A DNA stretch of 64,000 nt from a virus. Below the pieces are notes generated by a model, which was not told where the DNA came from, ran no database searches, and was given only the letters and a program-made list of their open reading frames with translations. The DNA is taken from IMG/VR virus record IMGVR_UViG_3300000304_000008, positions 5,363 to 69,362 of that record. One strand, written 5' to 3'. Below, piece by piece: positions 5,471-6,223 of the stretch. The position numbers and the translations under genes were made by a program. Position 1 is the first letter of the stretch. Each line of letters opens with the position of its first letter.

Positions 5471-5626
5471 TCAAAGAGGTCTATCATTTATTATATTAAA
5501 TAATATGCTTTATGCTGTATTATATAGTTTATACTTTATGTTCATACTATAAATATATATTTAAATATGCTTAGGCTAAAACAATATATATTAAAATAAT
5601 ACTTATTTAATATAATTAACTTATTA

Positions 5627-5937
5627 AGTATGAGGAGCTTAATTGTTCCTCATACTACTATATGACTGTTAGGTCATTATACAGTTGTTAAGACGAGGGT
5701 TCGATTCCCTCTAGCTCCACGCTCTATGAGCACAAGGAAAAACATCATTTAGGTTTCTACTCTTCTTTTCCTTAAATAAAAAAGAAGAGATTAGGGGCTA
5801 ACTGGTTTTGATTAGCAACAAGATATAATGAATAGGTCATATAATTGTCTAAATGGCAATAAATTTGTTACAGACTATACTCGGATTGCAGCGTAATCTA
5901 AGTATAGCAGGGCTAAGCTAATGTCCTAGAAAGCTGG
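5627..5937 (+). ncRNA. ssrA: tmRNA, circularly permuted (two-piece) form
   Basis: T-arm GAGGG-TTCGATT-CCCTC (5695-5711) plus acceptor 3' strand TAGCTCC-A (5712-5719) lie upstream of 5' strand GGGGCTA (5794-5800), giving a 7-bp stem with G3.U70; helix 2 pairs 5659-5690 with ~5813-5853; tag frame 5855-5896 GNKFVTDYTRIAA*; outer ends approximate. Confidence 0.9.
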
Positions 5938-5982
5938 TGTGTGTAGTTGGTATTACTAGGTTCGAATCCTAGCACACAACTA
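5938..5982 (+). ncRNA. tRNA-like minihelix (acceptor stem plus T-arm only)
   Basis: TGTGTG/CACACA 6-bp stem, CTAGG-TTCGAAT-CCTAG T-arm, 12-nt linker replacing D and anticodon arms, 3' ACTA. Confidence 0.6.
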
Positions 5983-6013
5983 ATAATATTGTTTAATTTA
6001 AATTTATACGCGT

Positions 6014-6223
6014 ATGAGAACAGTAAATCAAAGAAAAGCAAGTACCCGTAATCATCAATTAATGCTGTTAGCTGGTATGATTACTAATCTTAACAGTATG
6101 GAAAGACAATGTGCATCTATACCTATTAGAGATCATATTGATAAAGTAAAAAATAGTATTCAAAAACTTCAAAATGCTATTTTTAGAAGTGAAACTAAAG
6201 ATTGGATTGAACAACCTTATTAA
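6014..6223 (+). CDS. small hypothetical protein
   Basis: 69-aa ORF, first of a packed operon. Confidence 0.7.
   Translation: MRTVNQRKASTRNHQLMLLAGMITNLNSMERQCASIPIRDHIDKVKNSIQKLQNAIFRSETKDWIEQPY

Follow-up and report, generated by a model that had tools for sequence, protein, structure and literature searches.

A probable circularly permuted, two-piece tmRNA gene in a TAG-recoding crAss-like phage

The window analysed here, a 64-kb stretch of a crAss-like phage genome, carries on its + strand what is very probably a functional, circularly permuted ssrA gene giving rise to a two-piece tmRNA. ARAGORN calls positions 5630-5987 as a permuted tmRNA with the tag GNKFVTDYTRIAA*, and the Rfam model RF04321 (tmRNA_permuted), whose gathering score is 47, matches 5662-5896 with 58 bits and E 1.2e-8 when run over the whole 64-kb window, spanning the full model (positions 1-213 of 213). 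An earlier sequence-only reading of this DNA had proposed a circularly permuted two-piece tmRNA in a crAss-like phage and had suggested ARAGORN and a permuted-tmRNA covariance model as a check. Both programs call the gene, and together with the covariation between the two halves in relatives they place the permuted tmRNA at 5630-5987 well beyond chance; the tag is moreover kept at the amino-acid level. All of the elements that had been listed for 5627-5937, i.e. the T arm, the acceptor strands, the spacer hairpin and the tag frame, are present in the sequence. These limits are right for the core of the gene, but the functional unit is slightly longer, with a tRNA-like minihelix at 5937-5980 abutting the coding piece.

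The acceptor piece comes first in the gene (5662-5719, + strand) and is delimited by the 3′ tRNA domain of ARAGORN, the RF04321 alignment, covariation and the near-identical 3′ ends of Bacteroides tmRNAs. It contains a T stem GAGGG/CCCTC (5695-5699/5707-5711) enclosing the T loop TTCGATT (5700-5706), and continues with the acceptor 3′ strand TAGCTCC (5712-5718), the discriminator A73 (5719) and then CGC. The coding piece (5794-5936, + strand), defined by the ARAGORN 5′ tRNA domain and tag, Rfam and the fold of the alignment, starts with the acceptor 5′ strand GGGGCTA (5794-5800), followed by a D-loop analogue (5801-5811); we infer its 3′ limit (~5936) from where the abutting tRNA-like element begins. 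GGGGCTA and TAGCTCC rebuild the 7-bp acceptor stem with the alanyl G3.U70 pair that had been noticed before, and this G.U is found in 21/21 aligned sequences. It had also been said that CCA is not fully encoded; indeed, C74 alone is present after A73 in the window, and among the 21 aligned sequences a C follows A73 in every one while none encodes a full CCA. Between the acceptor piece and the coding piece, respectively, helix 2a is formed by GUUGUUAA (5684-5691) and UUAGCAAC (5812-5819), helix 2b by CAUU (5675-5678) and AAUG (5827-5830), and helix 2c by AUGACU (5662-5667) and GGUCAU (5835-5840). Helix 2c has a competitor in a local hairpin, GACU/GGUC, within the acceptor piece.

The covariation argument comes from 21 diverse relatives aligned and folded with RNAalifold, to which no structure was supplied. 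The program predicts 37 base pairs, 18 of them with compensatory double changes, and returns the inter-piece acceptor stem, the T arm, helix 2 and the 3′ hairpin; the multi-segment helix 2 that had been proposed from the window is recovered as four inter-piece segments. Compensatory changes occur in three acceptor pairs, in 5/5 pairs of the T stem, in helices 2a and 2b and in an extra 2-bp segment. Helix 2c is invariant in the main group, and support for it comes from the cr10_1/cr50_1 pair only (GGUUC/GAACU, a by-eye reading). Six variants of the acceptor halves were found (CAT/ATG, CTG/CAG, CTA/TAG, TAT/ATA, ATG/CAT and TTG/CAA), all of them complementary. This covariation shows that the two pieces would be held together by pairing in the acceptor stem and in helices 2a-2c.

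Helix 5 (5875-5907, + strand) takes in the stop codon together with the seven tag codons before it, and is followed by a 5-bp 3′ hairpin (5909-5913/5923-5927, + strand); the segment comprising both (5870-5935) has a folding energy z of −2.45. With only ~14 nt between helix 2c and the resume codon, PK1 is absent. Of the PK1-PK4 set by which the tmRNA class is recognized, the RNA thus lacks PK1 and retains of PK2-4 at most one 3′ hairpin, since all that follows helix 5 is one 5-bp hairpin, whose loop could pair over at most 4 bp. Smaller sets of pseudoknots occur in other permuted and organellar tmRNAs. The mature RNA would measure ~200 nt (about 58 + 143 nt) compared to a median of 396 nt for 95 one-piece tmRNAs of Bacteroidota. 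A PK1-less RNA of ~200 nt would be a departure from the canonical tmRNA, and its activity is a prediction.

The tag reading frame extends from 5855 to 5896 on the + strand (GNKFVTDYTRIAA), with the GGC resume codon at 5855, GCG at 5893 and the TAA stop codon at 5894-5896, within helix 5. The ARAGORN tag call agrees with the frame predicted earlier, which resumed at GGC (Gly, as in Bacteroides) and ended in Ala. Among 66 unique relatives we found 20 tag variants with the common core [VI][TM]DYT[RG][LI]xA; the frame is intact in 66/66 and the final residue is Ala in all. Codon usage within this core varies synonymously, with D encoded by GAC 35 and GAT 26 times and Y by TAT 47 and TAC 18 times, and likewise for T and R. 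Synonymous changes combined with a conserved peptide indicate that the tag is translated. The stop codon is TGA in 38 cases and TAA in 28, but never TAG. The exact tag of the window is unique among the 66 unique sequences, so that it was rightly called distinct. The C-termini of the tags differ between relatives (IAA, LAA, LVA, LSA, ITA and IGA), and because of this variation a ClpXP-type degron is not assured.

BLASTN against phage records matched Suoliviridae crAss-like phages only. A 15-nt motif taken from the 3′ hairpin is present in more than 116 IMG/VR contigs, and with one HMM per piece both pieces were found in 80 IMG/VR loci, corresponding to 67 unique sequences; the tmRNA spans four Suoliviridae subfamilies. 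Homology of both pieces, the tag family and the crAss-like genome place the window's gene in this Suoliviridae tmRNA group. Homologues that break the acceptor stem or the tag frame, which would have spoken against the initial reading, did not turn up among the stem variants and tag frames described above. The same reading had left open whether this RNA was already catalogued, and it is: tmRNAs of sister phages carry the annotation "transfer-messenger RNA, SsrA" in RefSeq (cr125_1, cr60_1, cr52_1 and cr114_1) and GenBank (cr10_1 and cr50_1). The feature is absent from the public records of cr53_1, cr113_1 and cr6_1, whose genes are long or interrupted and so escape the detectors. In the literature on tmRNA in crAss-like, Crassvirales or recoded phages we encountered no description of a crAss-like tmRNA, only mentions of ARAGORN in methods sections, and the supplement of the tmRNA database contains no phage row. 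The 2025 tmRNA database counts 79 phage tmRNAs (PMC11915505); in another survey 53 of 133 unique phage tmRNAs had the two-piece form, 50 of these being marine or aquatic (PMC9004378). The tmRNA of the window is a sound find, but of a family that is already catalogued and little studied.

Several relatives carry unusual forms of the gene. An insertion of ~875 nt splits the acceptor-piece T loop in cr6_1 (NC_055894.1, about 1415-2345). This insertion matches an Rfam group I intron model with 96.7 bits (E 5e-25) and bears an endonuclease gene in opposite orientation; the 2025 tmRNA paper (PMC11915505) lists no gene form that is both permuted and intron-containing. Several IMG/VR loci show truncated matches to the acceptor piece at other positions. 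In cr113_1 (340-1000) and four further loci, spacers of ~600 nt harbour an endonuclease gene of opposite orientation. The T arm of these phages is also unusual (GGGGC-TATCGTAT-GCCCC), and their tmRNAs are missed by both ARAGORN and Rfam and lack RefSeq annotation. A tRNA-His(GTG) gene lies between the acceptor and coding pieces of cr114_1 (816-888). Other structured RNAs are found in the neighbourhood: in seven relatives, including cr113_1, cr114_1 and cr6_1, RAGATH-9, RAGATH-20, RAGATH-22 or RAGATH-7-assoc elements precede the tmRNA at distances of up to a few hundred bases. No RAGATH RNA was detected in the 64-kb window, where a 12-bp hairpin (5627-5656) takes that place. The window also contains a Hatchet ribozyme (2726-2850, + strand), to which RF02678 aligns over its full length with 88 bits and E 5e-17, the cut-off being 51.

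The two pieces are separated by an intervening segment of 74 nt (5720-5793, + strand), close to the ~75 nt with its own hairpin reported initially. The hairpin is a 10-bp stem (CTCTTCTTTT, 5760-5769, and AAAAGAAGAG, 5780-5789, + strand) that ends 4 nt before G1. In relatives the spacer measures anything between 15 and 603 nt and is not conserved in sequence; among the 63 spacers with a length of 40 nt or more, 58 have their 3′-most predicted pair 0-5 nt from G1. Since spacers of such different lengths can even hold a tRNA-His (cr114_1) or an endonuclease gene (cr113_1), excision is needed. Upstream of the acceptor piece, the 12-bp hairpin at 5627-5656 (+ strand) is exceptionally stable (−19.3 kcal/mol, z −6.96, none of 200 shuffles as stable) and could be the 5′ end or a processing structure of the precursor; one relative's contig has another stem sequence at this site. 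A search for the upstream promoter motif ATGCTTTATGCT gave 14 matches vs 12 expected in the window, i.e. no enrichment, and sigma-70 and terminator scans produced nothing useful.

Directly 3′ of the coding piece lies the tRNA-like minihelix (5937-5980, + strand), which consists of an acceptor-type stem (GTGTGTG 5937-5943/CACACAA 5973-5979), a 12-nt connector and a T arm (stem 5956-5960/5968-5972, loop TTCGAAT 5961-5967), without D or anticodon arm. It is not a real tRNA as judged by ARAGORN and Rfam, neither of which calls it, and alone it folds weakly (z −1.12). Its T stem is kept by paired changes in contigs of relatives (5956C>T/5972G>A and 5957T>C/5971A>G). No fewer than 39 of the 67 unique relatives have a tRNA or tRNA-like element directly next to the coding piece when strict criteria are applied, and by eye a T-arm-like element is also visible in several sequences that fail these criteria; some of the abutting elements are genuine tRNA-Leu or tRNA-Ile genes. 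We infer from this arrangement that the minihelix may act as an RNase P signal setting the 3′ end of the coding piece. The locus was found in 13 public runs, four of which were examined, all as Logan contigs and mostly of relatives. A depth peak at 5689-5730 coincides with the conserved T arm and acceptor strand and probably stems from other tmRNAs; neither molecule ends nor a CCA were visible in these contigs. The runs with sequences near-identical to 5500-6100 are mostly chicken gut metagenomes, while the annotated relatives come from human faeces.

These data suggest the following course of events. A single + strand precursor would contain the acceptor piece, the spacer, the coding piece and the tRNA-like minihelix. 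As the acceptor 3′ strand precedes the 5′ strand in the gene, a cut between the pieces is required. Two-piece tmRNAs are presumably cut by tRNA-processing enzymes, with the pieces then joined by base pairing (PMC11915505, PMC9004378). Host RNase P would most likely cleave ahead of G1 (5794) and again ahead of the minihelix (about 5937), and trimming by the host 3′ of A73 (5719) would leave an acceptor end to be completed by the host CCA-adding enzyme. Host AlaRS could then charge the RNA through G3.U70. The complete 99.6-kb genome has no SmpB gene, and host SmpB must therefore serve; together with EF-Tu of the host it would bring the RNA to stalled ribosomes. Translation would resume at GGC, add (A)GNKFVTDYTRIAA and stop at UAA. 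The likely benefit for the phage would be an extra or re-specified capacity for ribosome rescue and tagging during infection.

That the locus might instead be a decaying fragment of a host ssrA gene, or a false positive of the detectors, deserves mention because ssrA fragments are known in prophages and ssrA is a common integration site (PMC9004378). However, the gene has been kept in four Suoliviridae subfamilies and is shared by more than 116 IMG/VR contigs, with compensatory changes at 18 pairs, and it sits in a complete crAss-like genome of the virulent type bounded by direct terminal repeats; we consider this explanation to have next to no chance, and family conservation, covariation and tag conservation effectively refute it. 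It is also very unlikely that the RNA is a decoy, with a tRNA-like domain that soaks up host SmpB or AlaRS or blocks trans-translation and a tag that is never used. A tmRNA-like gene without coding sequence in mycobacteriophage DS6A has been reported as such an inhibitor (PMC11915505), and the drastic reduction of the phage RNA, including the loss of PK1, would suit this role, but a decoy would not need a tag that is intact and conserved in 66/66 relatives through synonymous changes, nor a resume context and a stop codon inside helix 5.

A further possibility, which extends a suggestion made with the first description of the gene, is that the tmRNA exists specifically for the switch to a TAG-recoding code, rescuing ribosomes at UAG stalls or those that read through host UAG codons to the 3′ ends of mRNAs once the suppressor tRNA has been made. 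The recoding itself is clear. The source genome is complete (99,603 bp, direct terminal repeats), and its minus-strand late block (about 24/26-64 kb of the window) is open only with TAG as a sense codon, with up to 74 in-frame TAGs per late gene; a 3,272-aa ORF of this block has 65 in-frame TAGs, and ORF coverage there triples with TAG recoding. Outside the window, an amber-suppressor-type tRNA-CUA adjoins a tRNA-Met (genome 97,696-97,846, − strand), the two being the only tRNAs in the 99.6-kb genome. The co-occurrence of tmRNA and recoding in relatives was probed with a 1,438-aa late protein in the nine tmRNA-bearing RefSeq/GenBank records, all Crassvirales, whose orthologues are 35-48% identical; the tail-fibre protein is too divergent to be informative. 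Seven of the nine have 5-16 in-frame TAGs per matched segment, to which may be added that TAG is never the stop codon of the tag and that unassigned UAG codons in recoded E. coli are reportedly resolved in part by ssrA tagging (PMC6207430). On the other hand, cr10_1 and cr50_1 (Boorivirinae) possess the tmRNA while their orthologue is one open frame of 1,341-1,342 aa with no in-frame stop. The co-occurrence thus holds for seven records and breaks down in two, and the link between tmRNA and recoding is therefore not obligatory. In addition, the tmRNA lies in the + strand block (window 1-24000), which uses the standard code and is normal under code 11, and bacterial tags seldom end in TAG anyway. 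We regard a dedicated function in the code switch as unlikely, and a role of the tmRNA in it as secondary at best. A functional two-piece tmRNA acting in ribosome rescue and tagging is the reading that we retain.

As to its origin, the gene probably derives from a one-piece tmRNA of the Bacteroidota type that was independently permuted, and also shrunk, within the Suoliviridae lineage. The motif of the 5′ TLD, GGGG N5 TGG N TTTGACAGC, is all but confined to Bacteroidota contigs when one genome per species is scanned, and in the standard tmRNAs that ARAGORN finds at these motif loci the tag starts with Gly in 92/95 cases (GENNYALAA and similar). An HMM of the acceptor piece, which took no part in choosing these loci, matches the 3′ ends of Bacteroides tmRNAs almost base for base (E 5e-10). 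By comparison, the beta_tmRNA model reaches 34.7 bits where its cut-off requires 84, the match being limited to model positions 75-172, i.e. the TLD, and the alpha and cyano models (RF01849, RF01850, RF01851 set) are not among the matches listed with E up to 0.05, a list that omits two overlapping same-clan matches with lower scores. Since TLD and Gly resume codon are of the Bacteroidota type and not of the alpha, beta or cyano type, an independent permutation is probable. A broader and more tentative proposal is that the Suoliviridae tmRNA as a whole forms a permutation lineage separate from those of alpha, beta, cyano and mitochondrial tmRNAs, of Bacteroidota host origin, pared down to ~200 nt without PK1, released by tRNA or tRNA-like punctuation and with a tag possibly meant for a non-standard fate. 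As the DYT core is more conserved than the degron, the tag may mark proteins for a fate beyond the proteolysis linked to host ssrA.

CrAss-like phages rank with the most abundant viruses of the gut. If the proposed functions are correct, a whole phage family would have a miniaturised, host-derived RNA for ribosome rescue, by which a tag specific to the phage is written. In terms of tmRNA biology this RNA would represent a natural minimal design, in two pieces, PK1-less and about half the normal size, and probably one more independent case of permutation of a tmRNA gene. In terms of phage biology it hints that infecting phages deliberately control the trans-translation of their host. The value of the present analysis lies in characterisation and not in discovery, because the gene is already annotated publicly.

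The closest known systems are the annotated Suoliviridae tmRNAs (cr125_1, cr60_1, cr52_1, cr114_1, cr10_1 and cr50_1). They share the order acceptor piece, spacer, coding piece and tRNA or tRNA-like element, are 68-86% identical over parts, belong to the same tag family (GNFYVTDYTRIAA, GNTSYVMDYTRLAA and others) and are likewise all called permuted by ARAGORN. Unlike these kin, the tmRNA of the window has its own tag, an extra base pair in helix 2a, an AAUG/CAUU helix 2b, a short spacer of 74 nt and a minihelix in place of a full-size tRNA-like element. With the two-piece tmRNAs of Alphaproteobacteria, some Betaproteobacteria, Cyanobacteria and marine phages such as Melnitz it shares the form of the gene, the acceptor piece lying upstream. 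It differs from the consensus of RF04321, in which RF01849, RF01850 and RF01851 have been merged, by resuming with Gly and not with Ala, and from the alpha, beta and cyano two-piece RNAs by its TLD halves of the Bacteroidota type, the absence of PK1 and a much shorter length. The resemblance to the one-piece tmRNAs of Bacteroidota concerns the 5′ TLD motif (GGGG N5 TGG N TTTGAC AGC in relatives), a near-identical 3′ TLD half, the GAGGG/CCCTC T stem and, with respect to tags such as GENNYALAA and GNNNFALAA, the Gly resume codon and the Y-x-[LI]-A-A end. While the Bacteroidota form is a single RNA with a median length of 396 nt and a tag of 9-10 aa, the phage form is permuted, ~200 nt long and encodes a tag of 13-14 aa with a conserved DYT core.
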